A stretch of 64,000 nucleotides of DNA, taken from a virus. Positions 11,432 through 54,797 of the stretch are shown here, in pieces. The notes under the pieces were generated by a model. That model was not told the origin of the DNA and did not search any database. It saw nothing but the letters and a program-made list of their open reading frames with translations. The position numbers and the translations under genes were made by a program. Within the stretch, counting starts at the first letter, position 1. Each line of letters opens with the position of its first letter. The stretch lies in the IMG/VR virus record IMGVR_UViG_3300025648_000013; one strand, written 5' to 3'.

Positions 11432-12156
11432 ATTTTGTGCTTTCTAGCAAAGTGCATAGGAAAGCCACATCTGGCCATTTCTTTTCTACACAAAACACAA
11501 GAGACTCTATGTTTGTTTCTATCTGCCGAAGCTGCTTTCCATTCGTCTGTGCATCTTGCCTTTGCTTTTTCTGACAAACGTTCGCGTAGTTCTTGATTAT
11601 TCATTGCTTCTTTTGTTTCTATAGATATACTATTCTTTTCGTCATTTGTTCTAGAAACTTTATATCTATCGTTTTCCTCTCGTGATTTGGGATTTACTCT
11701 ATATTTCATAAATCTTTTTCTGCAATTTTCCTTTTCTTCTTCTGATTTATTAGACCATCTGATTGAAGCTTCGCTTGACATCTTAGACAATCTTTCCGCA
11801 GTAAAACTATTTCTTTGGTTTTGTTTTGTTTTTTCTGAAAGTTTATAACCACCAGAATTTCTCCAACGAATGTTGGATATCGCTTCATTGATATACATAG
11901 GATTTACATCTACATTGAAGTGTTTGTGTAGATAAGATTCGTGATTTATAGCAGATTCTCTTGTATCAAATATTTTTATGATTTTGGTTTTGAAAAATGA
12001 AGGATTTCGCTTCATCTCTTCAATCCAAACTTTCTTGTGTTTTTTTGATGTAACGGTTCCATGATATCCTCTATTGATTTTGGATATCGTGCTGTAACCG
12101 ATATAGAACGGAGGAAGTTTGTTGCCAATATAAATAGTAATATATGTACAATACAT
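11428..12156 (-). CDS. GIY-YIG homing endonuclease
   Basis: 'YCTY...PFYIGYS'; ATG 12156 follows GGAG RBS in the conserved leader. Confidence 0.8.
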   Translation of the reverse strand: MYCTYITIYIGNKLPPFYIGYSTISKINRGYHGTVTSKKHKKVWIEEMKRNPSFFKTKIIKIFDTRESAINHESYLHKHFNVDVNPMYINEAISNIRWRNSGGYKLSEKTKQNQRNSFTAERLSKMSSEASIRWSNKSEEEKENCRKRFMKYRVNPKSREENDRYKVSRTNDEKNSISIETKEAMNNQELRERLSEKAKARCTDEWKAASADRNKHRVSCVLCRKEMARCGFPMHFARKHKI

Positions 12157-12227
12157 GCTGGAATCTCCTAAGTTTCTAGAGTAGATGGGTTTCGGCCAAG
12201 TCACCGCGATCTACAACTATATTTATA
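12154..12227. ncRNA. HEG-associated structured element, copy 1
   Basis: GTAGAT/ATCTAC stem, CRC/Y loop, second hairpin, late promoter (see findings). Confidence 0.7.
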
Positions 12228-12250
12228 TAAACCGATTCGGGAGAAGTATT

Positions 12251-13264
12251 ATTTTTGGCAACAACTTTTATTTTGGCAGTATCAGAAAGTATATTGTTCT
12301 GTTTGGTTCGTTGTTCAATGATATTCTCATTGATCGCGTCAATGAAGCAGGAGATGCTGTTGATACACTGAAAGTGCCACTATCATATGGTCCAAAAGAT
12401 CGTTATCTCGTTCGACTTCAAGAGAACCCAGACTTGCTACGCCAGGTCAATCAGGTTCTACCTAGAATGTCTTTTGAAATCAAAAGTGTTGAATACGATT
12501 CATCGCGTAAGTTAAACACCATTGGCAAAAATAGAAATCTGACCAATGCTTCGAATGTTCTTGAATATCAGTACAATCCTGTTCCGTACAACTTTAACAT
12601 CGATCTATCGATTCTTGCTAGAAACGCCGATGATGCTTGTCGCATTGTTGAACAGATTTTGCCATTCTTCAAGCCAGAGTGGACAACAGCAATCAATCTC
12701 ATTCCAGAAATGGGTATCGTGATGGATATTCCTGTTGTTTTAAAAAACATTCAGTATGAAGATACTTACGAAGCCAGTTTCAATGACCGGTATGCTATCA
12801 TCTGGGAACTTCAGTTCGTTCTCAAAGGCTATATCTTTGGTCCAATCTCAACACAGGGCGTCATCAATACTGTTGATATCAACTTCCGTGTATCTGGTGA
12901 TAACGATACTTTTGTTGGCACAATCAGTAACGGCAGTAACACAATCTTTACAAATGCCGATATTGATGCTATCGATGTTGGTTCTAGGATTACAGCAAAC
13001 GTTCAAGGATTGCCAGCAAATACAACAGTAACCGCGGTAAATACGACATCGGTTTCACTTAGCAACATATATACTGGTTTAAACTCTAACGTAACCTTTA
13101 CAACTTCTGGCAACTCTCCTATTGCAGAATATGTACAGATTACTCCTGGTCTGGATGCGAATGGAAATCCAACAAGCAATGCTTCCATTTCTATTCCTGT
13201 ATCAGAGATTGAAGCTAACAGCAACTATGGTTACATAAAAGATTGGTTTACAAACATCGGGTGA
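12251..13264 (+). CDS. gp15: Tail sheath stabiliser/terminator gp15 (start uncertain, possibly ATT)
   Basis: 'FYFGSIRKYIVLFGSLFNDI', 'KVPLSYGPK', 'LPRMSFE', 'VEQILPFFKP'. Confidence 0.9.
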   Translation: MFGNNFYFGSIRKYIVLFGSLFNDILIDRVNEAGDAVDTLKVPLSYGPKDRYLVRLQENPDLLRQVNQVLPRMSFEIKSVEYDSSRKLNTIGKNRNLTNASNVLEYQYNPVPYNFNIDLSILARNADDACRIVEQILPFFKPEWTTAINLIPEMGIVMDIPVVLKNIQYEDTYEASFNDRYAIIWELQFVLKGYIFGPISTQGVINTVDINFRVSGDNDTFVGTISNGSNTIFTNADIDAIDVGSRITANVQGLPANTTVTAVNTTSVSLSNIYTGLNSNVTFTTSGNSPIAEYVQITPGLDANGNPTSNASISIPVSEIEANSNYGYIKDWFTNIG

Positions 13265-13267
13265 TCT

Positions 13268-13705
13268 ATGAACATAGCGAATAATCAAATCATTTCACAA
13301 AAACTAGGCCTTAGCCCAATGAATGACTCGGTTGGGTTTCCGACAAAGAAGTTGCCTACACAGGCTATTCTTGTTCAAGACGAAACGCAAACCAATGCAG
13401 AGAACGATTACGACTTTGCACGTAAGAATCTTTATGACATCATCGAAGCTGGTCAGGAAGCACTCACCGACATGCTGGAGTTCGCAAAGCAGTCTCAGTC
13501 GGCATCTGCATACGAAGTTGTTGGTACGCTGGTAAACGGCTTGGTGACAGCTAACCAGAAGCTTTTGAATCTAAGCAAGCAAGTCAAAGAGATCCAGAAG
13601 ATGGACAAAACACCAGAAGAAGCAGAAAAGACTACTGGTAATGTAACTAACAACCTATTTGTGGGTTCTACAGCAGAACTTCATAAGTTGCTTAGAGGAG
13701 ATTAA
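13268..13705 (+). CDS. gp16: Terminase small subunit gp16
   Basis: 'DYDFARKNL...AYEV...VTNNLFVGSTAEL'. Confidence 0.92.
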   Translation: MNIANNQIISQKLGLSPMNDSVGFPTKKLPTQAILVQDETQTNAENDYDFARKNLYDIIEAGQEALTDMLEFAKQSQSASAYEVVGTLVNGLVTANQKLLNLSKQVKEIQKMDKTPEEAEKTTGNVTNNLFVGSTAELHKLLRGD

Positions 13706-13707
13706 AA

Positions 13708-13776
13708 CATAAGTATTATGTGGTTCACGAGACGGCAATCTCCAACCACTCTAACGCTAATAGGAGCATCAGCATG
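13708..13776. ncRNA. HEG-associated structured element, copy 2
   Basis: GTGGTT/AACCAC and GAGA/TCTC stems. Confidence 0.7.
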
Positions 13777-13988
13777 GAAATATTTAATCTACTTATAACC
13801 AAAAAACACAATCGTCATTATGTAATGAGGTATTACAGATATATAAAGTTGTGTCGAAAGACCTAGTAAAAAATGTTACTGGGATGGATTAAACAACAAA
13901 GTGATGAAAAAATATATTGTAGGACAACAACCTGAAGGTTGGTTATTAGGCAATCCTATGAATCCAAAGAAAAAAGTTTTAAATTGAT
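13774..13988 (+). pseudogene. Internally deleted endonuclease remnant (probably HNH-type)
   Basis: N-terminal 'KKHNRHYVMRYYRYIKLC' out of frame with C-terminal 'QQPEGWLLG' DNA-binding tail. Confidence 0.6.
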
Positions 13989-15605
13989 ATGTCACATTAT
14001 TATAACAACAATATCAACCTCAAAGCAATAAATGTTCCTATTCAATGGGACATAGAAAAAGTCAAGGAGTTTAAAAAATGCTCCGAAGATCAAATATATT
14101 TCATTAAAACTTATTGTAAAGTTGTTCATGTTGATCACGGTCTTATGAACTTTGGTCTTTGGCCATTTCAAGAGAACATGATTAATACATTTGAACAAAA
14201 TAGATTTGTAATTTCCAAAATGCCCCGTCAGGTCGGAAAAACAACAACAGTTTGTGCTTATATATTACATAAGATGCTTTTCAATCAAAATTATCAGGTT
14301 GCGATTCTTGCCAACAAAGATGCTCAAGCCCGAGAAATATTGAGTAGAGTTAAACTTATGTTTGAACATCTTCCTGATTGGATGCAACAGGGTGTTAAAC
14401 GCTGGAATGAAGGTGATATTGAATTAGAAAATGGATCGAAGGCTCTTGCGTCCGCAACTGGCGGTTCTGCTGTTCGCGGTAAAACATTCTCTCTACTCGT
14501 ACTTGATGAGTTTGCATTCGTTCCTAATAATATTCAAGAAGAGTTCTTCGCCTCGGTCTATCCTACAGTAACATCTGGTAAGACAACTAAAGTTATCATC
14601 ACATCAACACCAAATGGGATGAATCTGTTTTATAAGTTGTGGTCGGATTCAGAACAAGGGCGCAACACCTACGTTCGCTGCTCTGTTCATTGGAGTGATG
14701 TTCCAGGAAGAGATGAGGATTTCAAAGATGAATATATCAAAAACACCAGTGAACGTCAGTGGCGACAGGAGTTTTGTTGTGAGTTTCTAGGTTCATCTAA
14801 TACACTGATTGATGGCAACAAACTAGCACAACTTACGTATATTGATCCTATCCTAACAAACAATGATGTGGACATGTACGAAGATGTGGATGAGTCTCGT
14901 GTATATGCAACTGTGGTTGATACGTCTCGTGGTTCTGGTATTGACTATTCTGCTTTTATTGTTTTTGATATCACAGACGTACCGTATCGAGTAGTGGCAA
15001 AATATCGTAATAATGAAATCGAATCTCTCGTTTATCCTACAATCATCTATAACGTATCACGACATTACAATAATGCATATGTTCTAGTTGAAATCAATGA
15101 CGTCGGTCAACAGGTGGTGGACATTCTACAGCACGATCTAGAATATGAAAACGTACTGTCAACAAAGACTAAAGGTCGCGCTGGCCAGAAGATCGGCGGC
15201 ACTATGGGCGGTGTTCGTTTTGCTATGGGTGTTCGAACCACAACACAAGTCAAGCGTATTGGTTGTGCCAACTTTAAGAGTTTGGTTGAGAATGATAAAC
15301 TGATAATCAATGACTATGATCTTCTTCAAGAAATGTATCGCTTTGTTGAACACAATGCTAAGTACCAAGCAGAAGAGGGAAGTCATGATGACCTCGTAAT
15401 GTGTTGTGTTTTGTTTTCCTGGTTAGTACATCAAGACTATTTCAAAGAACTAAGCAACAACGATGCAAGACTTGAAGTTTTGGCCAACAACCAGAGACTT
15501 ATTGAAGAAAATCTTGTGCCATTTGGTTATGTTGATGAAGCATGGGAAGATCCCAATGCAGGTGATGATTTCGAATCGTCATTCAGACAGTGGTTGATGA
15601 TGTAG
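13989..15605 (+). CDS. gp17: Terminase large subunit gp17
   Basis: 'PRQVGKTT' Walker A, 'LVLDEFAF' Walker B, 'HDDLVM'. Confidence 0.97.
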   Translation: MSHYYNNNINLKAINVPIQWDIEKVKEFKKCSEDQIYFIKTYCKVVHVDHGLMNFGLWPFQENMINTFEQNRFVISKMPRQVGKTTTVCAYILHKMLFNQNYQVAILANKDAQAREILSRVKLMFEHLPDWMQQGVKRWNEGDIELENGSKALASATGGSAVRGKTFSLLVLDEFAFVPNNIQEEFFASVYPTVTSGKTTKVIITSTPNGMNLFYKLWSDSEQGRNTYVRCSVHWSDVPGRDEDFKDEYIKNTSERQWRQEFCCEFLGSSNTLIDGNKLAQLTYIDPILTNNDVDMYEDVDESRVYATVVDTSRGSGIDYSAFIVFDITDVPYRVVAKYRNNEIESLVYPTIIYNVSRHYNNAYVLVEINDVGQQVVDILQHDLEYENVLSTKTKGRAGQKIGGTMGGVRFAMGVRTTTQVKRIGCANFKSLVENDKLIINDYDLLQEMYRFVEHNAKYQAEEGSHDDLVMCCVLFSWLVHQDYFKELSNNDARLEVLANNQRLIEENLVPFGYVDEAWEDPNAGDDFESSFRQWLMM

Positions 15606-15682
15606 CATCTAGTATTAGTTTTTTATAAATACAATCAAAGCAATCATAATCATAACCTGTTTTTGCGATAAGGGAGATAACA

Positions 15683-17989: not shown

Positions 17990-18019
17990 AGCTAACAAGA
18001 TAAAATAGGAGAATAATCA

Positions 18020-18571: not shown

Positions 18572-18607
18572 TATAAGTAGACTGTAAAGGTTTACTAAGG
18601 GATTGTT

Positions 18608-20414: not shown

Positions 20415-20415
20415 T

Positions 20416-28396: not shown

Positions 28397-28482
28397 TGGT
28401 ACGGCTGGTGGGACTCGAACCCACACTAACAAAGTTAACCGAAGCTTAAATCCGGCGGGTCTACCAATTCCCCCACGCCCGC
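28397..28482 (-). tRNA. tRNA-Leu(TAA)
   Basis: CCGGA-TT TAA GC-TTCGG; long variable arm; TTCGAGT T-loop; CCA; two acceptor mismatches. Confidence 0.8.
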
Positions 28483-28527
28483 ACAAACTCTCTAAATCAT
28501 AAATAATAATAAAAAGGGAGTATAATC

Positions 28528-28890
28528 ATGTCTATCAAAGATAACATCACTAAGTTCAACGACATGGTTGCAGTGAACCTTACAGATACAGTAGGAACCA
28601 TGTGGTGTGCTTATGCGTTTGCTTTGTTGGCTCTAATCAGTCTACCAGACGCTATTCACGCTGGGCTTGCAGCTACAATCTCATGGATCGCACAGACATT
28701 TCTTCAACTAGTTCTACTTAGTGTGATCATGGTAGGTCAAGAAGTTCAAGCCAGAAAGACAGAAGCTAGAAGCCAGCAAGATCACGAAACGATCTTGGCC
28801 GAGTTTGCTGAAATCAAAGCAATGCATGCCGAACTAACATCACTCCATGAGGACAAAGAAGGATGTGGATACGTAGAACAAAAGCAGTAA
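28528..28890 (+). CDS. Membrane protein (DUF1003-like)
   Basis: 'VGTMWCAYAFALLAL', 'WIAQTFLQLVLLSVIMVGQ'. Confidence 0.65.
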   Translation: MSIKDNITKFNDMVAVNLTDTVGTMWCAYAFALLALISLPDAIHAGLAATISWIAQTFLQLVLLSVIMVGQEVQARKTEARSQQDHETILAEFAEIKAMHAELTSLHEDKEGCGYVEQKQ

Positions 28891-29444
28891 TAGTAGCACT
28901 AACACTTCTGTTCTCTGCTCCAGCACTCGCGGAAGATCAACAGATCAATGCTGATAGACCAGGCGTAGGTATCGATGCTGACGTCATTCCACTTAAAACC
29001 TTTCAGGCTGAAGTAGGTGTTGATGGTTATGAGTTTAGAATGGCAATTGCAAAGGACTTAGAAGTATTCAAAGATAACACCAGCTTTGGTGCAAAGTATG
29101 CTATCATTTATAATCACAAGTTTGAATTATCAGCCAAGCTAGGATATGATAATAACAATGGTGTTTTCATTGAAGTGCCATCAAAGTATATTTTTAACAA
29201 ATACTTTTACTTGGGTACAGATGTTCAGATTGCTAAACATTCACAGACATATGTGACTGAATACAACTTTACACCAACAGATACACTTACAATCATGCCT
29301 TCTGTCTACTATGACACAAAGGTCAAAACTGGCATCTATGTTTCATGGATTCCACCTAAGAAACAGAATCTACAGTTTGACATTGGTTATAGCGAACACA
29401 AGTTTACCTTGGGTGTAAGTTCTGCATTTAGAGTTTTACAATAA
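28863..29444 (+). CDS. Exported, probable beta-barrel protein
   Basis: Signal peptide ending 'APALA', 'INADRPG...FQAEVG', alternating beta-strands. Confidence 0.55.
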   Translation: MWIRRTKAVIVALTLLFSAPALAEDQQINADRPGVGIDADVIPLKTFQAEVGVDGYEFRMAIAKDLEVFKDNTSFGAKYAIIYNHKFELSAKLGYDNNNGVFIEVPSKYIFNKYFYLGTDVQIAKHSQTYVTEYNFTPTDTLTIMPSVYYDTKVKTGIYVSWIPPKKQNLQFDIGYSEHKFTLGVSSAFRVLQ

Positions 29445-29447
29445 TAT

Positions 29448-29524
29448 TGGTACCCCTGGAGGGTCTCGAACCCCCAGCCGAGCCGTTATGAGCGGCCAGC
29501 TCTAACCAGTTGAGCTACAGGGGT
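29448..29524 (-). tRNA. tRNA with CAT anticodon, probably Ile2
   Basis: ACCCCTG/CAGGGGT; GGCCG-CT CAT AA-CGGCT; lacks initiator features. Confidence 0.85.
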
Positions 29525-29525
29525 A

Positions 29526-29599
29526 TGGCGAAGGTGCACGGTACCGCCCCGTGTTCTTCGGTTTTGGAGACCGACACATCACTTTAATGCTTCACCGAC
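29526..29599 (-). tRNA. tRNA-Trp(CCA), atypical T-loop
   Basis: TCGGT-CT CCA AA-ACCGA; T-loop GGCGGTA; two acceptor mismatches. Confidence 0.7.
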
Positions 29600-29605
29600 A
29601 TGAAA

Positions 29606-29684
29606 TGGCGCGCTGGGAGGGATTCGAACCCCCATGTGTCCAGTTAGCTTTCTCCTGATTAGAAGTCAGGCGGCATACCAGCGC
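29606..29684 (-). tRNA. Non-canonical D-armless tRNA-Arg(TCT)-like RNA
   Basis: Perfect acceptor and anticodon stems, canonical T arm and CCA, but only 7 nt where the D arm belongs and a 20-nt variable region. Confidence 0.7.
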
Positions 29685-30212: not shown

Positions 30213-30281
30213 GCATAAAACTCTAGACTTTTGACGGTGAATTTGATATAAATAGTGAAGTAAAAACAGATAGGTAACAGC

Positions 30282-30905
30282 ATGGCAATACATCTTTATG
30301 TGAAAAAATGCACACACTGCGAACTGAGATATTTCGGTAAAACAATGGGATCCGATCCCACATCATATACGGGTTCTGGAATCTACTGGAAAGATCATCT
30401 AAAAAAACACAATTCTAAACAAGAAACGTTAGAGTTGTTCTCGTTTTATGACGAGGAAGAAGCTAGAGATTTTGCAATCAAGTTTTCCGAAGATAATAAT
30501 ATAGTAGAATCTAAAGAATGGGCCAATCTGATCGTAGAGAATATAAGCGGCGGCAGAATATCAGGATGGCAACACACCGAAGAGACCAGGCAGAAGATGA
30601 GGAAGCCTAAATCTAATAGCGCAAAAATGGGCAAATACGAGCGTACTCAGGAATGGAAAGATAATAAATCTAAAATCCTACTTGGTAAAGAGCCCTGGAA
30701 TAAAGGAAAAACTGGAGTGTATTCGGAAGCTACTCTATGCGCGTTTAGGGAAAATGCAAGAAATAGGGGTGATGTTTGGAAAGAAAAACAGTCTATCGCA
30801 CAAAAATCTAGACCAAAAGAATTGATGAAGGAAGCAGGAAGAAAAAGCGGATTAGCGCGAACTGGAATCAAACGAGGTCCATACAAAAAGAAAGATGTTT
30901 TATGA
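30282..30905 (+). CDS. GIY-YIG homing endonuclease
   Basis: 'HLYVKKC...RYFGKT...YTGSG', 'WANL', NUMOD3. Confidence 0.85.
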   Translation: MAIHLYVKKCTHCELRYFGKTMGSDPTSYTGSGIYWKDHLKKHNSKQETLELFSFYDEEEARDFAIKFSEDNNIVESKEWANLIVENISGGRISGWQHTEETRQKMRKPKSNSAKMGKYERTQEWKDNKSKILLGKEPWNKGKTGVYSEATLCAFRENARNRGDVWKEKQSIAQKSRPKELMKEAGRKSGLARTGIKRGPYKKKDVL

Positions 30906-36920: not shown

Positions 36921-38639
36921 ATGATTCTATTCAAAGTAGTACGTTGGAGGAACCTGCTTTCAACGGGCAATACCTTTACAGAAGTCAAACTAAATGAAGC
37001 CGCGTCAACTCTGATTGTCGGTGAAAATGGCGCTGGTAAGTCTACCTTTATCGAAGCGATTTCGTTTGCTCTTTATGGTAAACCCTTTCGCAAGATCAAT
37101 AAGCCACAACTCTTGAATGCGATCAACGGCAAGAACTTGCTTGTTGAAATCGAGTTCGCTATTGGTAAGAAAGAGTATCTGGTTAGACGTGGCATCAAGC
37201 CAAACGTCTTTGAAATCTTTGTTGATGGTTCTCTACTGAATCAAGAAGCGAAGTCTGGTGACTATCAGGACGTTCTGGAGAAGAATATCCTAAAGCTGTC
37301 GCATAAGTCATTCTCACAGATCATCACGCTCGGTGCTTCTACCTTTGTTCCTTTCATGCAGTTGCCAGCACAGGCTCGGCGTGACTTCATTGAAGACCTT
37401 CTGGATATCCAGATTTTCTCAACGATGAACAACCTACTGAAGACACGTATTCAAGACAACAAAGATGCACTAAAGGATGCCAACACACAACTGGCTCTTT
37501 GTGAACAAAAGATTGATTTGAATAAGAAGCATATCGAATCACTTCGGCAAAACAATGAAGACTTGATCGACATCAAGCACGGCAAGATTTACGAACATGA
37601 AACTCTGATCGAGACTGCAAATGCCGAGATTGACAAAATCTCCGAACAGATTGACGATTTGAAACTCAATATTGGAGATGAGCAATCTATTACGGATAGA
37701 TTGAACAAGGTCACTACGCTTCACTCTGAGTTGAAGTTCAAACTGACCGATCATAACAAGCATATCAAGTTTCTTCATACTCACGATCACTGCCCGACTT
37801 GTACACAAGACATTGATCCTGTTTTCAAGGAAGAAAATCTAAACACAAAGATTGCCAGTGCAGAAGAGTTAGACACAGCCTTAACTAAACTATCAGAAGA
37901 ACAGGCGAAGATCAATGCACGAATGAAAGAGATTGTTGATATTAGCAATCAAATCTCAGAATATAATGCAGAGATAATAGACCGCAACAACAAGATTCGT
38001 ATGTACCAGAAGTATAACAGCGAGTTGCAGAAAGAGATTGAAGCACTTCGTAATAAGCAGACTAAGGTAGAGACGGATGCTGTTGATCTAAACAAAGCCA
38101 AGAAAGAACTGAAAGACGTTCACACACTTATTGAAGAACTAACCGAAAATCGTTCTTTGTTGGGTACTGCTGCTGTTCTGCTGAAAGATGGTGGTATCAA
38201 GACCAAGATCATCAAGCAATATGTTCCTGTCATGAACAAGCTAATCAACAAGTATCTTGCGGCTATGGACTTCTTTGTCCAGTTTGAACTTGATGAAAGT
38301 TTTGATGAAAAGATTAAGTCGCGGTTTCGTGATGAGTTCTCTTATGCGTCATTCTCTGAAGGTGAAAAGATGAGAATAAATCTGGCTTTACTTTTCTCAT
38401 GGAGAGCAGTGGCAAAACTTCGTAACAGCGCAAGCACAAATCTCTTGATTATGGACGAGGTTTTTGATAGTTCTTTGGATACAAGTGGTACGGACGAGTT
38501 CTTCAAGATTCTAAGCAGCGTAACGGCTGACACCAATGTGTTCATCATTTCACATAAGGGAGCATCACTGATGGACAAATTCACTAACATCATTCGTTTT
38601 GAGAAGCAGAGAAATTTCAGTGTTATGGTTGTCGAGTAG
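36921..38639 (+). CDS. gp46: Recombination ATPase gp46 (Rad50/SbcC-like)
   Basis: 'GENGAGKST', 'CPTC' hook, 'FSEGEK', '[10 protein letters not shown]'. Confidence 0.97.
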
Positions 38640-39201
38640 CTTGTTTACATTTATCCAAGTGCCATCTAAGAATATTACCCTTAGACGCAATTATTAAACA
38701 ATGTGGACATAACTCTTTAGGTCTATTTTTGTTTGATATCGAGTTTTTTAGTTTGCTTTCGTCGGACACCTTTGTGCCTATCCTGGGCCCTGTTCGTTTT
38801 CTTACTAATTCTAAACTTTGCGGAATGCCTCTTAGTTTCGCTGCTCTTTTTTCTATAGTTTCGGCAGAATGTTTTTTGCCTTTATTTTTCTTGCCAGTTA
38901 TAGAGACTTTGATTTTGTGTTCTTCGCTCATAATTCTTCCGGAACATCCTTCTCCTCCGTCCGTTCTATTGCGAAGAATGCCTGTTCCTAAATCTTTTCT
39001 GCCATACCATCTAATAAATCGACGTTCTAATGCGAATGCCCCAATCTCTGAAAGATTTGTTTCTAGAAAAACTATTTTAGATTTGTCTTTGGGAATAGAA
39101 ACAGAATGTTTTTCGTACATTCTTCTTGATTTCCCTTTACCTATGTAGTAAGGTGTGTTGTCAGATTTTCTGATATATGCATAGACGTAATAAGTATTCA
39201 T
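38623..39201 (-). CDS. GIY-YIG homing endonuclease
   Basis: 'YYVYAY...PYYIGKG', '[10 protein letters not shown]'. Confidence 0.88.
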
Positions 39202-39271
39202 GGCTGGACTCCTTGTACGAGGACTAGAGTGGTTGGATACTGGTAATATCGTGAACCACAATATACTTATA
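39199..39271. ncRNA. HEG-associated structured element, copy 3
   Basis: GTGGTT/AACCAC and GATA/TATC stems. Confidence 0.7.
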
Positions 39272-42410: not shown

Positions 42411-42485
42411 TATAAGTAATAGTGTAGGTCGCGGAGACTCCCCAGAATCCCACCTACTCTATTGCTAATATGGAGCAACAGCATG
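42411..42485. ncRNA. HEG-associated structured element, copy 4
   Basis: GTAGGT/ACCTAC, GGA/TCC and TTGCT/AGCAA stems. Confidence 0.7.
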
Positions 42486-43175
42486 ATTACATATACGCCC
42501 TATACATATCTAATAGGATGGTCTAAACAAGACAGATGGTACTATGGTGTTCGCTACGCCAGAGGATGTCATCCAAATGAACTTTGGATTAAATATTTTA
42601 CTTCTTCTAAGCATGTGAAGAAGTTTAGAATAGAACACGGCGAACCCGATGTTATTCAGATCAGAAAAATCTTCGATTCAAAAGAATCTGCTGGCATATG
42701 GGAACACCGTGTCATAAGAAGAATGAATATGGTGAAATCCAATAGATGGCTAAACAAATCTGACACTAAAATACATGACAGAACTGGATGTAATCATAGT
42801 GTTGAAACAAAAGAAAAACTGTCTATCAAAAGAAGACAGAGAGAATCTAGTGGAATGCTTGGACACAAGCACTCAGATGAAACTAAAAGACAATATAGTT
42901 TAGTTAGAAGTTCTGCTATGCGGAATAAAACTAAACAAGAACGTAATGATATGCTTAATGCGGCAAGATCAAAGGTTCAAGAGATGATTATTCCAGGCAA
43001 AGGATTACCTTGGCAGGATAAAGTGAATAAGAACCCAGATAAGATTCGAAAGTCTACTCTTTCAAATACTGGAAAGAAAAGGACTCCAGAACAAAAACAA
43101 AGAATGAGTGAAGCAAGAAAGCTTTATTTAATGAAAAGGAAAGAAATAATGACAACTGAAATGGAGAATAAATAA
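42483..43175 (+). CDS. GIY-YIG-like homing endonuclease
   Basis: 'PYTYLIGWS...WYYGVRYA...YFTSS'; NUMOD3 repeats. Confidence 0.82.
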   Translation: MITYTPYTYLIGWSKQDRWYYGVRYARGCHPNELWIKYFTSSKHVKKFRIEHGEPDVIQIRKIFDSKESAGIWEHRVIRRMNMVKSNRWLNKSDTKIHDRTGCNHSVETKEKLSIKRRQRESSGMLGHKHSDETKRQYSLVRSSAMRNKTKQERNDMLNAARSKVQEMIIPGKGLPWQDKVNKNPDKIRKSTLSNTGKKRTPEQKQRMSEARKLYLMKRKEIMTTEMENK

Positions 43176-44212: not shown

Positions 44213-44869
44213 ATGAAGCTAAGTGAAAATACCCTTACTATCCTCAAGAACTTTTCGTCAATCAATCATGGTATTCTGTTTCGCTCGGGTAACATGATTC
44301 GCACTATCTCACCACAAAAGACTGTGATGGCGAGTGCAGAAGTTCAAGAGACGTTCGACCGCGACTTTGCAATCTATGATCTATCAAAGTTTCTCGGCGC
44401 CCTAATGCTGTTCGATCAGCCAGAAATCCACTTTGGCGAAACACAGGCTACTATTGCCTCAGATAAGCGTAAGCTAGTATACACCTACGCTGATCCATCA
44501 ACGTTTGTGACTTCGCCTGCAAAGGATCTAAACTTTCCTGCTGCTGAAATCAATCTCAACATCACACAGGAAGACCTTACTAAGGTTCAAAAGGCTGCTG
44601 GTGTTCTTGGTCTTCCAGAAACAATCATTTCTGGTGACGGCGAAAACATCTATCTATCGGCTGATGATAGCAGAAATCCAACCAACGACAAGTATAGCAT
44701 TATCGTAGGTACTACTGATCTTGTATTCAAGGCTATCTTTAAGAACGAAAACATCAAGCTTCTACCTAATGACTATGACGTTTCAATCTCTAAGGCAGGT
44801 ATCTCAAAGTTTACTGCTCCTAGCATCACATACTTCATTGCGACAGAGAAAGATTCGACCTTCAACTGA
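44213..44869 (+). CDS. gp45: Sliding clamp gp45
   Basis: 'MKLSENTLTILKNFSSIN', 'FAIYDLSKFL'. Confidence 0.95.
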   Translation: MKLSENTLTILKNFSSINHGILFRSGNMIRTISPQKTVMASAEVQETFDRDFAIYDLSKFLGALMLFDQPEIHFGETQATIASDKRKLVYTYADPSTFVTSPAKDLNFPAAEINLNITQEDLTKVQKAAGVLGLPETIISGDGENIYLSADDSRNPTNDKYSIIVGTTDLVFKAIFKNENIKLLPNDYDVSISKAGISKFTAPSITYFIATEKDSTFN

Positions 44870-44915
44870 CATTGATACTATGTTTTAACTGATGTTACAT
44901 TGAAAGGTTTATATT

Positions 44916-46722: not shown

Positions 46723-47349
46723 CTATATGAATGTGGCTCCAAAGGACTTCAACTTATAGACTGAGATGCCCGTTGACCTGGACGCACTTTTCATACTGTA
46801 ATATCTAACTCCCGCATACAACACCTCCCTAGAGTTAGATAATCCTAGTTTAGACACTCTTTCTAGTTGACTAGAAGTAAAGGTTCTCTTGAGATTAGAT
46901 CGACCAGTGTGCCATTCTTTAGGAATATGATCATACTGGTCGATTCTTTTGTTCTCATTACCATTAGTGATCCATATCTTCTTACACATCGCCGTTGATC
47001 TTTTGTTGTTTGCGATGGGAGTATGTGATGCTGCTAACATATATCTGTCGTTTATTACGGATCTATTGTCTGTCTTGTTCAGCCATGTGTCTTTAGTAGA
47101 CACATTCATTCTACGCAAAACTTTATGTTCCCAATCTAATGCTTGGATGCGATCAGAAAATGTTCTTCTAATCAAAATCACATCGGGTTCACCATTTTCT
47201 TCACGAAACATCTTGACATACTTGGATGATGTGTAGTATGATGTCCATAGATCGTTCGGATGACAACCTTTCGCAAAGCGAACACCATAGTACCATTTGT
47301 TGAGTTTAGACCAACCAATGAGATATGTATAGGGCGTATAAGTAGTCAT
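46723..47349 (-). CDS. GIY-YIG-like homing endonuclease
   Basis: Paralog of 42483; 'PYTYLIGWS...WYYGVRFA'. Confidence 0.82.
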   Translation of the reverse strand: MTTYTPYTYLIGWSKLNKWYYGVRFAKGCHPNDLWTSYYTSSKYVKMFREENGEPDVILIRRTFSDRIQALDWEHKVLRRMNVSTKDTWLNKTDNRSVINDRYMLAASHTPIANNKRSTAMCKKIWITNGNENKRIDQYDHIPKEWHTGRSNLKRTFTSSQLERVSKLGLSNSREVLYAGVRYYSMKSASRSTGISVYKLKSFGATFI

Positions 47350-47420
47350 GCTGGAATCTCCCAAGTTTCTAGAGTAGATGGGTTTCTTGGTCGTCACCGC
47401 GATCTACATTAGTATTTATA
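47347..47420. ncRNA. HEG-associated structured element, copy 5
   Basis: Nearly identical to copy 1 except the loop. Confidence 0.7.
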
Positions 47421-47622: not shown

Positions 47623-47628
47623 ATAACT

Positions 47629-47688
47629 CGTCTATGCCAAATGGGTAGACATTACATCAACTCTCGCTTAAATAGGAGAACTAATATG
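47629..47688 (+). promoter_or_regulatory. ROSE-like RNA thermometer leader
   Basis: 5' hairpin plus TCTCGCT-taaat-AGGAGA (UYGCU opposite the SD). Confidence 0.6.
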
Positions 47689-48231: not shown

Positions 48232-48436
48232 ATGCTAGAAAAATACATCGTCCCTGTATCAAGAGTTGCAGGGTTTACCATTGCAGGTCTATGTTTGATC
48301 ACTATGTATAATCTTCTTGCACTATAAGGAGATTGTCTATGTGGCCTTATACTGAGGACGAATGGGATTATCTAGGATAATCTATAAATAGAGAGGGGCA
48401 TATTGTCCCTCTCTTTTTGTTTCAAGGACTATAGCG

Positions 48437-48919: not shown

Positions 48920-48922
48920 GGA

Positions 48923-49672
48923 ATGTCAATGCACAAGTTTGGTCACTTTCTAAGAGAAGATATCTCTCTTACGTTTCAGTATCATGATGAGTTGAATCCT
49001 CTTATCTGGGATGGTGATGAACTAAAGCAGAACATCAAAGAACGTCTTCTATTGATTGGTAGAATGTTTGCTGTGTTTGCCAATATTCCAGAAGATGCTA
49101 TCAAAGACATCGTGTTCACTGGTGGCAATGCAAACTATAACTATACACCACATTCCGATCTAGACGTTCATCTACTGATCAACATTCCAAAGATTCCAGG
49201 TATCAACCGCGTGTATCTTGATGATTATCTTTATGATAAGAAACTGTTATGGGGATACAAACATCCATCGCTGACTGTCATGGGATATCCTGTTGAACTA
49301 TATGCGCAGAGTTATAGAGAGAAGTTGGTGTCACCTAAAGCAAATCGTGGTGTCTACTCTCTAATGCAAGACAAGTGGCTGTTCAAGCCAAGAAAAGAGA
49401 AGCCAGGTGACTTTCACAATGACACAGGCTTTAAGAATAGACTTGAACATCTAATCAAACAGATCGAAGATGTTCTCACAAAGACTGGTGACCATAGCGA
49501 AGACATTAAGCGCCTCAAGATCAAGATCCGCAATATGAGAACTGCCGGCATCCATAAAGCAGGCGAGTTGTCAACAGAGAATCTTCTGTTCAAAGAACTT
49601 AGAAATAAAGGATTTATATCTAAACTAAACGACTATATACAACAAGCCGAAGATTCTAGTCTGTCTTTATAA
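48923..49672 (+). CDS. Pol-beta-superfamily nucleotidyltransferase-like protein
   Basis: 'TGGNANYNYTPHSDLDVH', 'VELYAQ'. Confidence 0.75.
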   Translation: MSMHKFGHFLREDISLTFQYHDELNPLIWDGDELKQNIKERLLLIGRMFAVFANIPEDAIKDIVFTGGNANYNYTPHSDLDVHLLINIPKIPGINRVYLDDYLYDKKLLWGYKHPSLTVMGYPVELYAQSYREKLVSPKANRGVYSLMQDKWLFKPRKEKPGDFHNDTGFKNRLEHLIKQIEDVLTKTGDHSEDIKRLKIKIRNMRTAGIHKAGELSTENLLFKELRNKGFISKLNDYIQQAEDSSLSL

Positions 49673-50414
49673 TTTTTGGTATCAGTTTACTGTTTACTCC
49701 ACAGAAACGATCTTTATTTGCATAAAAGACATCTTTCTTGATACGAACCATTTTGTTTTCGTGTAAATCGTATGCAGTTATTCTGTCTTTTTGATTGTCT
49801 GACATTTTTTTCTTTGATTCGTCTGTGTGGATTTTTCCTAATTTTGCCTGTCTACATTTTTCCCGATGTTCGATCGATAATGTTTTACCTATACGAGATT
49901 TCAACTGTTCTTGCGTTAGTTTTCTTCCTTTTAATTTCTCAGAATGTTCTGGTCTCTTTTTTCCATACCAATAATGAAGTTCTCCCTTTTGACATTCGGA
50001 CATTTTGCATCTAGTTTCTTCTGTTATATTTTTTTTACTTTTAGATATTTTTTCTTTACATTCTTTAGACCGTTTGCTTCCATAATTTGGAGATAAATTT
50101 CCCTTTTTGCCAAACATAGGATGATTGTTTCCCGATGTTTGGCCAGTTGATGCATCTTCCATTATAAGATTTGCCCAGTTTGTAGATTCAACAATGTTGT
50201 TTTCTTTTGAGAATTTAAGTGCAAATTCTGTAGCAAGCTTTTGGCAATCAAATCCAAAAATTTCGACCGTTTTAGGATGTCCTTTGTGCTTTGTTATATG
50301 TCTTAGCCACAACTTTCCAGATCCTTTATATCTAAAAGGATCTTTCTTTTCTGTTTTGCCAAAATATTTAAGACCACAATGGTTACATTGTTTAATATAA
50401 AGATAAATAGTCAT
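49656..50414 (-). CDS. GIY-YIG homing endonuclease
   Basis: Paralog of 30282; 'YLYIKQC...KYFGKT...YKGSG'. Confidence 0.85.
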   Translation of the reverse strand: MTIYLYIKQCNHCGLKYFGKTEKKDPFRYKGSGKLWLRHITKHKGHPKTVEIFGFDCQKLATEFALKFSKENNIVESTNWANLIMEDASTGQTSGNNHPMFGKKGNLSPNYGSKRSKECKEKISKSKKNITEETRCKMSECQKGELHYWYGKKRPEHSEKLKGRKLTQEQLKSRIGKTLSIEHREKCRQAKLGKIHTDESKKKMSDNQKDRITAYDLHENKMVRIKKDVFYANKDRFCGVNSKLIPKIIKTD

Positions 50415-50479
50415 GCTGGAATCTCCTAAGTTTCTAGAGTCAGTAGGATGGCACTCCGTGACTGACACTTTTATTTATA
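50412..50479. ncRNA. HEG-associated structured element, copy 6
   Basis: GTCAGT/ACTGAC and GGA/TCC stems. Confidence 0.7.
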
Positions 50480-50487
50480 AAAACGAA

Positions 50488-50568
50488 GAACTTCGTAATA
50501 TGGGCTACATTGATAAGCTAAACGAATATCTGATAAAAACGCAAGATCGACATTTATCTGTTTACTAA
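50488..50568 (+). pseudogene. Orphaned original 3' end of the nucleotidyltransferase gene
   Basis: ELRNMGYIDKLNEYLIKTQDRHLSVY* vs ELRNKGFISKLNDYIQQAEDSSLSL*. Confidence 0.8.
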
Positions 50569-50623
50569 TCTCTCGCTTTGGTGTAAGATGAGCCATTGAG
50601 AGATTCTAAACAGTTGAGGTGAT

Positions 50624-52108
50624 ATGGATTATTATACAAACACATTCATGCAACGCGGCAAGATGTATGTACGCGGCATTCAAAACGGCAAACAAGTAAA
50701 GCAAGTTGTCAACTATAAGCCATATCTGTTTATTCCTACAACAGAACGTACGAAGTATAAAAACATCCATGGTTCTCCTGTGGGTAAGATCGACTTCGAT
50801 TCGGTTGATGATGCAAAAGAGTTTCAGAAAAAATATGAAAACATCGATGGAATGCCAATCTATGGCATGACTCATTTCATCTATCCATTCATGTATGACA
50901 CATTTCCAGGTGAAATCAAGTACGATCCTTCTGCAATCTCTGTTGTCAGTCTTGATATCGAAACTGTGGTTGGCGATGTAGATATTGCTACTGCCATTCA
51001 AACAACTCCAAATGAAGTGACTGCTATTACCATTTCGCGCAATGGTAAGAAAGCGGTGTTTGGTTGTGGAGATTATACACCACACGAAGACAACATCATC
51101 TACTACAAATGCAAAAATGAATACCAACTGTTTCAGAAGTTTCTAGATATCTGGAACTCCTATGATTATAGCCCAGATGTGCTGACTGGTTGGAACGTAG
51201 AGTTTTTTGACGTTCCCTATCTTGTTGGTCGCATTCGGATGGTTCTAGGAGAAGATGCTGCGAAGCGTCTTAGCCCATGGCAAATGCTTCGCGAGTATGA
51301 TGTTGAAATCAAGGGACGTAAGATGACATCATACTACATGATGGGCATCACTGTACTTGACTGGATGGCACTTTACAAGAAGTTTACATACACATCACAG
51401 GAATCCTATCGTTTGGATCATATTGCCAAGATCGAACTTGGTGATCAGAAGCTAGACTATAAATCACAAGGTTACACAAGTCTACAAGATTTGTATGAAA
51501 GAAACTTTCAGCTTTACGTTGAATACAACATCCATGACGTTCATATCGTTGATCGGCTAGAAGATAAGATGAAACTGATTGAACTGGTGTTTGCTATTGC
51601 TTATGACGCAAAGGTAAACTATCAGGATACACTAGCATCTGTGCGCCAGTGGGACGTAATCATCCACAACTATCTGATGCAACGAAATATCGTTGTAGAC
51701 AATCAGAAGAAATCTGGTCGTAGTGATGATAGTCTTGTTGGTGGTTATGTTAAAGATCCAAAAACAGGTATGCATCGTTGGATGGTTTCATTCGACCTTA
51801 ACTCTCTGTACCCACATTTGATTCAACAATACAACATCTCACCCGAGACGTTTGTTGAAAAGATGTGGGACTTCTTAAGCATCGATCAACTGTTGAGAGT
51901 TAGAGACACTGGGTTGCAAGGCTCTGAATACTCTTATGCAGCCAATGGTTGTGTATATCGCAAAGACAAGCAGGGCTTTCTTGGTGCTATCATGGCCAAG
52001 ATGTATGATGATCGTGTTATCTATAAGAAGCAGATGATCAAAAATAAAAAACTTCTAGAACAAATTGATTCTGAATTAAAATCAAGAAATCTACTACATA
52101 TGAACTAA
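50624..52108 (+). CDS. gp43: DNA polymerase gp43, N-terminal part (exonuclease, palm A, first finger helix)
   Basis: 'LDIET', 'GWNVEFFDVPY', 'YNIHDV', 'SFDLNSLYPH'. Confidence 0.95.
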   Translation: MDYYTNTFMQRGKMYVRGIQNGKQVKQVVNYKPYLFIPTTERTKYKNIHGSPVGKIDFDSVDDAKEFQKKYENIDGMPIYGMTHFIYPFMYDTFPGEIKYDPSAISVVSLDIETVVGDVDIATAIQTTPNEVTAITISRNGKKAVFGCGDYTPHEDNIIYYKCKNEYQLFQKFLDIWNSYDYSPDVLTGWNVEFFDVPYLVGRIRMVLGEDAAKRLSPWQMLREYDVEIKGRKMTSYYMMGITVLDWMALYKKFTYTSQESYRLDHIAKIELGDQKLDYKSQGYTSLQDLYERNFQLYVEYNIHDVHIVDRLEDKMKLIELVFAIAYDAKVNYQDTLASVRQWDVIIHNYLMQRNIVVDNQKKSGRSDDSLVGGYVKDPKTGMHRWMVSFDLNSLYPHLIQQYNISPETFVEKMWDFLSIDQLLRVRDTGLQGSEYSYAANGCVYRKDKQGFLGAIMAKMYDDRVIYKKQMIKNKKLLEQIDSELKSRNLLHMN

Positions 52109-52266
52109 CTTCGCCTGAAGGTGAGATATTCATTACAAATATATTGACAAATTTCTGTGAACAATATAAATTGGCATTTACAACACTATGGATAAACTCT
52201 GAAACTGGTCGAATTCCAGTTAAAGGTAGAAACAAAGGTTGGAAGTGTATTAAAATTAAGGATTAA
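52087..52266 (+). pseudogene. Homing endonuclease C-terminal DNA-binding remnant between the gp43 halves
   Basis: 'TYELTSPEGEIFITNILTNFCEQYKL...KGWKCIK*', no start codon or nuclease domain. Confidence 0.65.
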
Positions 52267-52268
52267 AT

Positions 52269-53376
52269 ATGGATTTAACTACATTGACAAATGAGGAGAT
52301 CGCAGCGCTCCGTATGTCAACTGTTAAGGAGATCTCTCGCCTTGATAATCTTCAAATGGCGAAGAAGATTCAACTTAACAGTGCATACGGCGCGCTGGGT
52401 TAGCAACAAATACTTCCGTTGGTATGACATCAACCACGCTGAAGCTATTACTATGTCTGGCCAGCTTTCCATCCGCTGGATTGCTGATCGTATGAATGAA
52501 TACTTGAACAAGCTATGTGGTACGACAGACTATGATTATATCATTGCATCAGATACAGATTCTATCTATGTGACACTAGCACCTCTGGTCGACAAGATCA
52601 TGCCAGATGAAACGGACACAAAGAAGATCGTTGAAGTTCTAGATAAGTTTTGCCTTAGTAAGATTGAACCATTCATCGATAAAGCATATCTGGAACTATC
52701 TGTTCGGATGAATGCATATGCACAAAAGATGTTCATGAAGCGTGAAGCTATTGCCGATAAAGCAATCTGGACAGCAAAGAAGCGATACATCCTAAACGTC
52801 TGGAATCAAGAAGGGGTTGCATACGATTCGGCAAAGCTGAAGATGTCTGGCATTGAAGCGGTCAAATCATCAACACCACAATCTTGTCGTGATAACATTA
52901 AGAAGGCATTAAATCTTGTCATGAACGAAAGTGAAACGACACTGCAAACGTTCATCGCAGATTTCCGTAAAATGTTTACACAGTTGCCTTTTGAGGAAGT
53001 GGCATTCCCTCGTGGTGTCAGTGATCTAGACAAGTATGAAACCAAAGACATTGAAACGTATGCTTCTGGTACTCCTATTCATGTTCGTGGCAGTATTCTG
53101 TACAATCGTATGCTAGAGCGTCATGGACTAGGTAATAAATACGAGCAGATAACAAACGGTGATAAGGTGAAGTTCTGTTACATGAAAACACCTAATCCCG
53201 CTAGAACAAATGTCATCTCCTGTCCATCTGAGTTGCCATCAGAGTTTGATTTGGAGAAGTACATCGACTATCCAATGCAGTTTGATAAAGCGTTCATTGC
53301 ACCACTACAGGGCATTCTGGATGTGATTGGTTGGAAGTCAGAGAAGATCGCAACACTAGAGGACTTTTTCAGCTAA
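52269..53376 (+). CDS. gp43: DNA polymerase gp43, C-terminal part (frame break at 52401)
   Basis: AAGGA RBS, ATG 52269 'MDLTT...KKIQLNSAYGALG' TAG, then +1 frame 'NKYFRWYD...SDTDS...KKRY'. Confidence 0.9.
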
Positions 53377-53627
53377 TGGACGAAGATTTTGATTTTGGAT
53401 TTACATACACCACAACCGAAGATATTGCAGCACCAATCATTGTCTCTAAGACAACAAAGAATGAGGAAACGATTGACAAGCTACTCAAAGCTATCACACC
53501 ACTACTAGACAATCTAGCCAAGGATGCAGACAAAGATGTCATCCATTGGCCAAATCGTGCTGCAAAGATTGAAGAGTTTCGCAAGAAACTATACAAAATC
53601 GCTGGAAAAACATTGACTAAGAAGTGA
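53376..53627 (+). CDS. Small conserved hypothetical protein
   Basis: 'DFDFGF', 'PLLDNLAK...IHWPNR'. Confidence 0.65.
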   Translation: MDEDFDFGFTYTTTEDIAAPIIVSKTTKNEETIDKLLKAITPLLDNLAKDADKDVIHWPNRAAKIEEFRKKLYKIAGKTLTKK

Positions 53628-53681
53628 TTTTGTGATACAGTGAATACTGGTTTAAACCAAGGAGAAAACCAAGGAGATTAT

Positions 53682-54797
53682 ATGAGCATTCTAGACAAAC
53701 TACGTAAAGCAAGCACAATCAAGGAAGCAGATGTGCTATCGGATTCCAAGTTCTTTAATAAGAAGGACATGATTCAGACTTCCATTCCCATGCTCAATGT
53801 TGCACTATCAGGTAGTCTAGACGGTGGTATTACACCAGGTCTAACTCTCTGGTGTGGTCCATCAAAGCACTTCAAGTCATTCTTCTGTCTTCTAGAAGTC
53901 AAAGCGTACCTTGACAAATATCCTGAAGCTATCTGTCTCTTTTACGACTCGGAGTTTGGTGCTGGTAAGAAGTATTTTGAAACCATTGGCATTGATACTA
54001 CTCGTGTTATTCATAGTCCAATCACCGACGTTGAACAGTTCAAGTTTGATGTTATGCAGCAACTTGAAGTGATTTCTCGTGGCGACAAGGTAATCATCTT
54101 TGTTGACTCTGTTGGTAACTTGGCTTCTAAGAAAGAAGTTGATGATGCCAAGGATGGCAAGTCTGTTTCAGATATGTCACGGGCGAAGCAGATCAAGTCT
54201 GTGTTTCGTATGATTACGCCACATCTAAACATCAAAGACATTCCAATGGTCGTTGTGAATCACACATATCAGACACAAGAAATGTACTCAAAGGCCGTCG
54301 TATCTGGTGGTACTGGTATCTACTATTCTGCTGATTCAATCTTCATCATTGGTCGTCAACAAGAGAAAGATGGCACCGAAGTCACTGGTTACAACTTCAT
54401 CATCAATGTTGAAAAGTCACGCCATGTTCGTGAAAAGTCCAAGATTCCTATTGAAGTTCGTTTTGAAGGTGGTATCTCAACATGGTCTGGTCTACTAGAT
54501 GTTGCTCTAGATTCTGGTCATATATTGAAATCTGGATCTTGGTATCAGATGGTGGATTTCGATACTGGAGAGATTTCAGATAAGAAAATCCGTGGAGGTG
54601 ATATTGAGAAGTCTGGATTTTACAAAAGACTCATCAAGGATTCGCGTTTCAAAGAGTTTATCGAAAAGAAATATATGCTTTCAAATGAAACAATGATAAC
54701 AGATGAAGAGATTGACGATTTTATAGACGATTATTGTTTATTAGGTGGGATGGCAGTCCGTGACCTACACTCTATTTATAAGAAAGACTTGATATGA
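53682..54797 (+). CDS. uvsX: RecA-like recombinase UvsX
   Basis: 'NVALSG', 'GPSKHFKS', 'YDSEFG', 'DSVGNLASKKE'. Confidence 0.96.
   Translation: MSILDKLRKASTIKEADVLSDSKFFNKKDMIQTSIPMLNVALSGSLDGGITPGLTLWCGPSKHFKSFFCLLEVKAYLDKYPEAICLFYDSEFGAGKKYFETIGIDTTRVIHSPITDVEQFKFDVMQQLEVISRGDKVIIFVDSVGNLASKKEVDDAKDGKSVSDMSRAKQIKSVFRMITPHLNIKDIPMVVVNHTYQTQEMYSKAVVSGGTGIYYSADSIFIIGRQQEKDGTEVTGYNFIINVEKSRHVREKSKIPIEVRFEGGISTWSGLLDVALDSGHILKSGSWYQMVDFDTGEISDKKIRGGDIEKSGFYKRLIKDSRFKEFIEKKYMLSNETMITDEEIDDFIDDYCLLGGMAVRDLHSIYKKDLI
54742..54780. ncRNA. Truncated HEG-associated element, copy 7 (no HEG attached)
   Basis: Minus strand TATAAATA-gagt-GTAGGT CAC GGA ctgcca TCC C ACCTA. Confidence 0.65.

Follow-up and report, generated by a model that had tools for sequence, protein, structure and literature searches.

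What restrains a free-standing homing endonuclease within the phage that carries its gene? To our knowledge, an answer exists for no more than a handful of genes in T4 and Aeh1. The question is raised by IMG/VR virus record IMGVR_UViG_3300025648_000013, of which a stretch of 64,000 nucleotides (nt), called the window here, was analyzed. It is part of a T4-like myovirus with 41% G+C, and no close relative was found among 50,697 deposited phage genomes. A portable cassette of about 90 bases heads six nuclease genes of this phage. A sequence-only reading of the window had recognized its hairpins and proposed that they fold best on the strand antisense to the nuclease gene; that interpretation is partly supported here, and an inward-facing late-promoter motif that it missed can be added. 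We put at roughly one half the probability that the element serves a cis-antisense late transcript that would restrain the nuclease, much like RNA-OUT of IS10.

Anatomy of the element

Read in the sense of the nuclease gene, the parts of the element are TATAA(A/G)TA, a spacer of 4-5 nt, helix P1 (6 base pairs, bp), an internal loop 5'-CRC/3'-Y, helix P2 (3-4 bp plus a variable top), a single U, helix P3, a C and the AUG. P3 is formed by CUA...CAG, with GGAG in its loop and the Shine-Dalgarno sequence thus within it, and CAGC is followed by the ATG. The six full copies of the sequence-only reading (ATG at 12156, 47349, 50414 and 39201 on the - strand and at 13774 and 42483 on the + strand) and its truncated seventh are all present as it had written them. 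So are the four versions each of P1 and P2, and the CRC/Y loop, the U-CUA linker and CAGC that do not vary among the window copies (copy D has CAGCC).

The pattern CTCTA-N12-22-CAGCATG occurs five times in the window, against 0.12 expected. A covariance model built from 59 distinct copies matches exactly the six full copies there (46.7-66.7 bits), and also the truncated P1/P2 hairpin at 54742-54767 on the - strand (13.8 bits). The copies, lettered A to F, and the orphan are laid out as follows, with promoters and antisense motifs predicted from their consensus (aa, amino acids).

12220-12227, - strand: copy A, predicted sense late promoter TATAAATA, 5 nt upstream of P1
12181-12214, - strand: copy A, hairpin P1/P2 with CGC/C internal loop
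12158-12179, - strand: copy A, P3 (CUA...CAG) with AGGAG inside; ATG 12154-12156
12129-12136, + strand: copy A, inward-facing (antisense) TATAAATA, within nuclease codons 7-10
11428-12156, - strand: copy A, Seg-like GIY-YIG endonuclease, 242 aa, reversed between the gp14-like and gp15-like genes
47337-47420, - strand: copy B element; predicted sense promoter 47413-47420, P1/P2 47374-47407, P3 47351-47372, ATG 47347-47349
47337-47344, + strand: copy B, antisense motif TATAAGTA
46723-47349, - strand: copy B, GIY-YIG endonuclease, 208 aa
50402-50479, - strand: copy C element; predicted sense promoter 50472-50479, P1/P2 50439-50466, P3 50416-50437, ATG 50412-50414
50402-50409, + strand: copy C, antisense motif GATAAATA
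49656-50414, - strand: copy C, GIY-YIG/NUMOD3 endonuclease
39189-39271, - strand: copy D element; predicted sense promoter TATAAGTA 39264-39271, P1/P2 39229-39259, P3 39204-39227, ATG 39199-39201
39189-39196, + strand: copy D, antisense motif AATAAGTA
38623-39201, - strand: copy D, GIY-YIG endonuclease, 192 aa
13708-13866, + strand: copy E element; predicted promoter CATAAGTA 13708-13715, P1/P2 13720-13749, P3 13751-13772
13774-13866, + strand: copy E, HNH-type endonuclease stub, 30 aa, between the small and large terminase genes
42411-42495, + strand: copy F element; predicted promoter TATAAGTA 42411-42418, P1/P2 42424-42457, P3 42459-42481, ATG 42483
42488-42495, - strand: copy F, degenerate antisense motif TATATGTA; relative L045 has TATAAGTA there
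42483-43175, + strand: copy F, GIY-YIG/NUMOD3 endonuclease, 230 aa
54742-54780, - strand: orphan copy, predicted promoter TATAAATA 54773-54780 plus P1/P2 hairpin only, inside the last uvsX codons

The T4 late-promoter consensus is established, and T4 late transcription starts about 6 nt past TATAAATA. This octamer has 22 sites in the window, against 3.3 expected. On the + strand, which carries nearly all window genes, its sites lie 35-60 nt upstream of late-gene starts, and all four sites on the - strand belong to copies of the element. CATAAATA likewise precedes late genes, arguing that the first base of the octamer is free. From this excess and placement, NATAAATA is very probably the late promoter of the window phage, as it is in T4.

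The family beyond the window

A text pattern finds 94 stretches in IMG/VR. With the covariance model the number of matches rises to 110, from 95 sources; 74 are distinct, and some are without the fixed words of the pattern. The carriers are uncultured T4-like phages and Variovorax phage V45v66 (copy at 86005-86061). The model gave no match, or a marginal one only, in Acidovorax phage ACP17 and Stenotrophomonas phage Ps15, and blastn of the element against the 50,697 phage records returned chance matches only. At the Rfam 15 gathering score only tRNAs reach the threshold in the window, and nothing does for the element; at a lenient E-value the best match has 16.9 bits against a threshold of 86. 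The element therefore belongs to no described Rfam family, and no description of it was found in searchable papers.

The sequence-only reading had the element precede unrelated endonucleases. This is overstated for the window, where all five intact open reading frames (ORFs) downstream of it are Seg-like GIY-YIG genes (phrog_314), and holds across the family, in which GIY-YIG, HNH_3, HNH and DUF7487/PD-(D/E)XK-like ORFs all carry it. The sequence-only reading had also listed a probable HNH remnant; the 30-aa stub kept by the copy at 13774 is similar to the start of an HNH-type endonuclease found in L012. Being found on unrelated nuclease genes, the element is a portable module rather than the untranslated region of one set of paralogs. 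It is a real and widespread RNA/promoter element of solid anatomy, to which a function can be assigned by inference, and constitutes a newly described, strongly covarying RNA motif common to GIY-YIG, HNH and PD-(D/E)XK-like nuclease genes.

A subfamily (L009, L011, L017, L028, L044, L053-L055, L059, L062 and L085) is distinguished by one more hairpin, A/U-rich (ATATGTT...AACATAT), which separates P1 from the late promoter.

The strand that folds

The stems had been called compensatory, and the 59 sequences bear this out. Both sides change in 12 of the 18 pairs, and the covariation score is 0.508, against 0.144 in shuffles (none of 500 reaches 0.508) and at most 0.088 in slid controls. Pairs are canonical in 99% of cases in P1 and 94% in P2, and across the family P1 occurs in 18 versions, P2 in 20 and P3 in 34.

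The observation that A.C mismatches become G.U pairs on the opposite strand also generalizes. Canonical pairs make up 86.0% in the gene sense and 95.6% in the antisense, and one-sided changes read in the gene sense give A.C 64 times and G.U twice (one pair forced by the search pattern being excluded from this count). The pair inside the internal loop is G-C in 32 sequences, A-U in 8, A.C in 19 and G.U in none. Three pairs that switch between G-C and A-U pass through A.C intermediates (19, 10 and 13 in the gene sense) and never through G.U, and in P3 the third pair is A.C without exception. The antisense strand folds more stably in all 59 copies, as had been proposed. The main source of the difference is P3, which averages -1.6 kcal/mol in the sense and -5.2 kcal/mol in the antisense orientation; P1 and P2 are nearly all Watson-Crick and can therefore fold on either strand.

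One might suppose that the fold is antisense simply because transcripts of neighboring genes read through reversed cassettes. As the sole reason this is ruled out, because co-oriented cassettes show the same bias: the ratio of A.C to G.U is 28:1 in cassettes that oppose their neighbors and 13:1 in co-oriented ones, arguing that the cause is intrinsic to the cassette. The selected fold is thus apparently that of the strand antisense to the nuclease gene.

A second promoter motif in the first codons

The start of the nuclease genes is constrained. Among 66 distinct ORF starts, 46 read M-x-I-Y. Ten different codons serve as codon 2 in these, yet it ends in T in all 46, where codon usage would predict 23.5. 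The isoleucine is ATT in 41 of the 46 (background 37%) and the tyrosine TAT in 45 (background 76%). Codons 2-4 (NNT ATT TAT) are thus kept at the nucleotide level, and their opposite strand reads ATAAATA. NNT, ATT and TAT are favored over NNA and ATA of equal A/U-richness, and a smaller class of starts, M-x-Y-L, retains TATTTAT in another reading frame.

Overall, 53 of 76 starts have NATAA(A/G)TA at one constant offset, and its synonymous positions show conservation. The opposite strand, NATAA(A/G)TA-NN-CAU-G, matches the late-promoter consensus and lies 5 nt from the base of P3', the antisense form of P3, mirroring the 5 nt between the outer promoter and P1. Codons 2-5 thus seem to hold a second, inward-facing late-promoter motif, newly noted here, which would be a natural source for an antisense RNA.

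That M-x-I-Y is a mere GIY-YIG motif is ruled out, because HNH_3, HNH and DUF7487/PD-(D/E)XK-like ORFs share the start; the IY belongs to the module and not to the GIY-YIG fold. Three other endonuclease-like genes of the window (two of them phrog_314) that lack the element also lack the inner motif and have other leaders.

An outer helix, P0, in which UAUAAAUA would pair with UAUUUAUA past the AUG, was set aside and is kept only as a caveat. Its eight A-U pairs would close a multiloop, making it weak, and by sequence it is inseparable from a second promoter. In L036 and V45v66 the promoters read xxTAAATA on both sides and the two outer positions are not complementary, which speaks against such a helix; the table of its G/C co-variation (4/5 vs 8/59) rests on about three independent lineages.

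Could the element be a sense-strand leader and nothing else? P1/P2 would then stabilize the late nuclease mRNA and P3 would be a weak translational mask of the I-TevI/segB/mobE type, while mutation bias, together with codon preference at the gene start, would produce both the ATAAATA of codons 2-4 and the antisense bias as side effects. The Shine-Dalgarno sequence and AUG are indeed in or beside P3, a late promoter lies 5 nt upstream, and there are precedents in T-even phages and Aeh1, together with the seg43(25) hairpin (PMC2988022). The account is nevertheless improbable. Between the end of TATAAATA and P1 there are 3-8 nt (mostly 5), or more where the extra hairpin intervenes, so that the promoter is upstream of all helices, late transcripts retain the structure and the logic of late-promoter bypass fails. 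GGAG lies mostly in the P3 loop, and P3 contains the invariant A.C and is weak in the sense orientation, which is not the stable sequestration of Shine-Dalgarno and AUG seen in the I-TevI type. The 64-to-2 excess of A.C, the preference for T-ending codons over equally A/U-rich ones and the retention of the inner motif in another frame also speak against it. The element is thus more than a ribosome-binding-site (RBS) hairpin of the I-TevI/mobE type, as the sequence-only reading had suspected.

Proposed mechanism

In the reading that we favor, the element would be the overlap, about 60-65 nt long, of two convergent T4-type late transcripts, each beginning flush with a hairpin, because T4-type late starts fall some 6 nt past the octamer. 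Transcription of the nuclease mRNA from the outer TATAA(A/G)TA would begin close to where P1 does, at about its first base, and P1/P2 would be the 5' hairpin of this mRNA. P3 would be weak in this mRNA through its A.C mismatches, leaving the Shine-Dalgarno sequence and AUG usable. The inner NATAA(A/G)TA, in codons 2-5 on the opposite strand, would start the antisense RNA at about the base of P3'.

The antisense RNA, presumably the species whose structure is selected, would consist of two stable hairpins joined by one A: first P3', in which one G.U pair is invariant and the loop can pair with the Shine-Dalgarno sequence, and then P1'/P2', with two bulged G residues. It would be fully complementary to the translation-initiation region of the nuclease gene and would pair there in cis, and also in trans with copies that have the same P3. 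This pairing would lower nuclease translation or mRNA stability, as RNA-OUT does on RNA-IN. In reversed cassettes the antisense RNA probably continues into the neighboring phage gene. We infer the firing of both promoters, the 5' ends, the pairing and the repression from the observed motifs, covariation, strand bias, synonymous-site conservation and cassette boundaries.

Such a transcript would amount to a general portable brake for selfish nucleases. It would also show clearly how a promoter can constrain the codons with which unrelated proteins begin, and the 34 versions of P3 would form a natural set of orthogonal sense/antisense pairs. In the annotation of metagenomic phage genomes, the element can in addition serve as a marker of homing endonuclease cassettes and of where they end.

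Several points weigh against this reading. Strand-asymmetric deamination bias could add to the excess of A.C, and the sequences share descent, so that the counts overstate the number of independent events. The inner motif appears inseparable, by sequence, from the complement of the outer promoter, since two convergent identical promoters inherently form an inverted repeat; the first base of the inner octamer is not conserved, and the motif of copy F is degenerate (TATATGTA). Past P1' there is only a U-rich tail (UAUUUAUA) and no canonical terminator, a simple scan flagging neither strand. Finally, a phage ORF starts within 100 nt of P1' in 16 of 38 reversed cassettes, making a short, discrete antisense RNA doubtful in those cases.

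The last two points bring in the main alternative, an unlikely one, in which the same antisense late transcript is selected as the 5' leader of an outward promoter that serves the neighboring phage gene. The structured leader would be a 5' stabilizer, or an RNA like put of phage HK022 that acts in cis on RNA polymerase, and would offset the polarity of a reversed insert of about 700 nt in a late operon, and the nuclease would be damped only incidentally. Reversed cassettes do outnumber co-oriented ones by about 2:1 (40 to 19), a Shine-Dalgarno sequence often stands right after UAUUUAUA in those with a nearby phage ORF, and the lack of a terminator and the put-like architecture (PMC9378689) also fit. 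So does copy A, where the antisense TATAAATA at 12129 is the only exact + strand site from the promoter of the gp14-like gene (10680) to the gp15-like gene, and where the stop-start coupling seen in nuclease-free alleles is broken. Yet the strand bias is as strong in the one third of cassettes that are co-oriented, where the transcript would run antisense into the upstream gene. A plain 5' stabilizer would not need invariant junction and bulge nucleotides, and the element has no sequence relation to put, polymerase binding being only presumed.

A further and still less likely variant joins the two ideas. The antisense two-hairpin RNA might do more than pair: acting in cis, it might bind a phage protein or, as put does, the RNA polymerase engaged in late transcription. 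Nuclease cassettes of three unrelated families would then have in common a universal device for "anti-polarity plus self-restraint", enabling them to settle in essential late operons in either orientation, and the M-x-I-Y start of unrelated proteins would be the imprint of a promoter in coding sequence.

Cassette boundaries and exchange between copies

The suggestion that the element marks one end of the cassette holds up: comparison of alleles with and without the nuclease gene places the promoter within about 3-15 nt of the cassette boundary. The whole cassette of copy C (about 49637-50493, - strand) is absent from the close relative G001. The insert comprises the 3' end of the phage gene upstream, in recoded form, the GIY-YIG/NUMOD3 gene in reverse and the element. 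The old 3' end of this phage gene, displaced by the insert, survives outside the promoter and starts at most about 5 nt from it. Conversely, G001 has at 44864-44900 a reversed cassette that is absent from the window, with its promoter end about 27 nt before the AUG of the next gene. At the gp14/gp15 junction of the window, no more than 3 nt separate the copy A promoter from what is left of the gp14 tail. Copy F replaces a vWA-like gene, which G001 has at that locus. The element is thus the outermost part of the mobile unit, as is also expected of a promoter-first cassette.

Where the gp14/gp15 junction lacks the nuclease gene (alleles L111-L121), the ATG of the gp15-like gene overlaps the stop codon of gp14 (TAATG/TGATG). 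In the copy A allele (window 12185-12253) this ancestral ATG reads ATT (12251). The gp15-like frame is open back to ATG 12185, within the antisense P1 arm, and the gp15-like protein may therefore start inside the copy A element.

How does one module come to head unrelated nucleases? The leaders of copies A and B are 92% identical and their proteins have no significant similarity. The P3 of copy A differs from that of a 98%-identical relative (L105) as a clean 17-nt patch; it equals the P3 of copy C in the same genome, and that of copy B differs by one loop base. Leader and ORF are thus uncoupled, and exchange between copies would explain the distribution of the module.

The position of the element also bears on the suggestion that it is a folded single-stranded DNA site on the antisense strand for cassette mobility or capture, analogous to attC or HUH-recognized hairpins. 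Its place at the cassette end, its attachment to three unrelated nuclease families, the almost purely Watson-Crick P1/P2, the presence of extrahelical bases, the patch-wise exchange of P3 and the fact that G.T is the best-tolerated DNA mismatch could all be read this way. However, homing by double-strand-break repair requires no end-specific site, and homologous exchange between copies already accounts for the shuffling of leaders. The cassettes delimited by allele comparison hold no recombinase and only the homing endonuclease ORF, and all conserved blocks are expression signals (two promoters, Shine-Dalgarno sequence and AUG). The suggestion found no positive support, and we consider it highly improbable.

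Two loci show decay. A near-identical relative of copy F (L045:465-800, compared with window 42424-43175) keeps the element and the 3' third of the endonuclease and has lost about 490 nt of the ORF, an internal deletion that left the leader intact. The last 18 or so codons of uvsX (54742-54797) are the antisense of the orphan P1/P2 hairpin plus its promoter. The orphan is apparently the scar of a lost cassette, taken over as uvsX coding sequence; exact search of other loci found no such hairpin elsewhere.

Other features of the window

The window encodes a gp14-like neck protein, a gp15-like tail-sheath stabilizer, the small and large terminase subunits, UvsX and a gp41-type helicase. Six tRNA genes form two clusters on opposite strands (28400-29684, - strand; 59591-59854, + strand). 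Two GIY-YIG genes (1574-2296 and 9981-10640, phrog_314) have their own common leader at 1536-1573 and 9944-9980, made up of TATAAATA, immediately the palindrome CTCTAGAG and then AAAGGAG, without the P1/P2 hairpin. ORF 30282-30905, which starts MAIHLYVKKC and has no PHROG match, is preceded by TATAAATA and AACAGCATG (30247-30284), that is, by the CAGC-ATG context of the element without its hairpins. At 48383-48424, a G+C-rich hairpin of 11 bp and then a run of T come directly after TATAAATA: a predicted late promoter abutting a terminator-like site.

Comparison with known systems

The closest precedents among phage homing endonuclease genes are I-TevI, I-TevII, I-TevIII and segB of T4 and mobE of Aeh1, in which hairpins sequester the RBS, limiting expression, and a late promoter bypasses them (PMC2988022). 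The element resembles these in having a late promoter beside an RNA structure around the RBS. It differs in that its promoter is upstream of every helix, so that late transcripts would keep the structure, and in that the helix at the RBS has little stability in the mRNA, selection on the fold appears to act on the other strand and a second promoter motif points inward. By description only, the position of P1/P2 can be likened to that of the stable hairpin of seg43(25) in Aeromonas phage 25, which lies directly upstream of the RBS of a segD-like GIY-YIG gene and does not sequester it (PMC2988022); unlike the element, seg43(25) has no second hairpin or antisense promoter described.

An antisense RNA has been seen experimentally in a T4-like phage, by the account of CfrI of cyanophage S-PM2 in Millard et al. 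2010, as cited in PMC2984593. The annotated start of CfrI lies 58 nt inside the gene of the endonuclease F-CphI, and the RNA crosses the start region and the late promoter of that gene. Unlike the element, CfrI is about 200-225 nt long and reaches into psbA, by that same account, and its endonuclease is of the endo VII type. The covariance model has no match in S-PM2, and no clear NATAAATA was found before the CfrI 5' end. As far as that account goes, CfrI shows that a T4-like phage can make antisense RNA from inside an endonuclease ORF; it is not the same element.

In architecture alone, the antisense RNA would resemble the put RNA of HK022, which has about 60-70 nt and two stem-loops that meet at a single nucleotide, with conserved bulges, and follows a promoter (putL) (PMC9378689). 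The counterpart here is P3'-A-P1'/P2', of 61 model positions, with a predicted start at the helix base. The element has no sequence similarity to put. The latter binds the zinc-binding domain of the RNA polymerase beta' subunit and suppresses terminators, activities that can only be conjectured for the element.

The best overall parallel may be IS10 (PMC5006887). There a promoter within the transposase gene, pOUT, gives rise to RNA-OUT, which base-pairs with RNA-IN over the latter's translation-initiation region. There are clear differences. IS10 uses sigma-70 promoters, one stem-loop and a transposase target, whereas the element has a pair of predicted phage late promoters, two hairpins with conserved bulges and a homing endonuclease as target, and is known here from sequence alone; its overlap is the whole leader, with no defined 3' end seen. 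What the two would share is an arrangement of convergent promoters (with promoter activity predicted here), the antisense one lying near the 5' end of the gene that the selfish element itself carries, within its coding sequence. In both, the antisense RNA (69 nt in IS10, predicted for the element) can pair with the translation-initiation region and, of the two partners, is the one that folds stably, as the geometry of the element bears out. By analogy with the multicopy inhibition of IS10, the antisense RNA of the phage element might also act in trans on its other copies.

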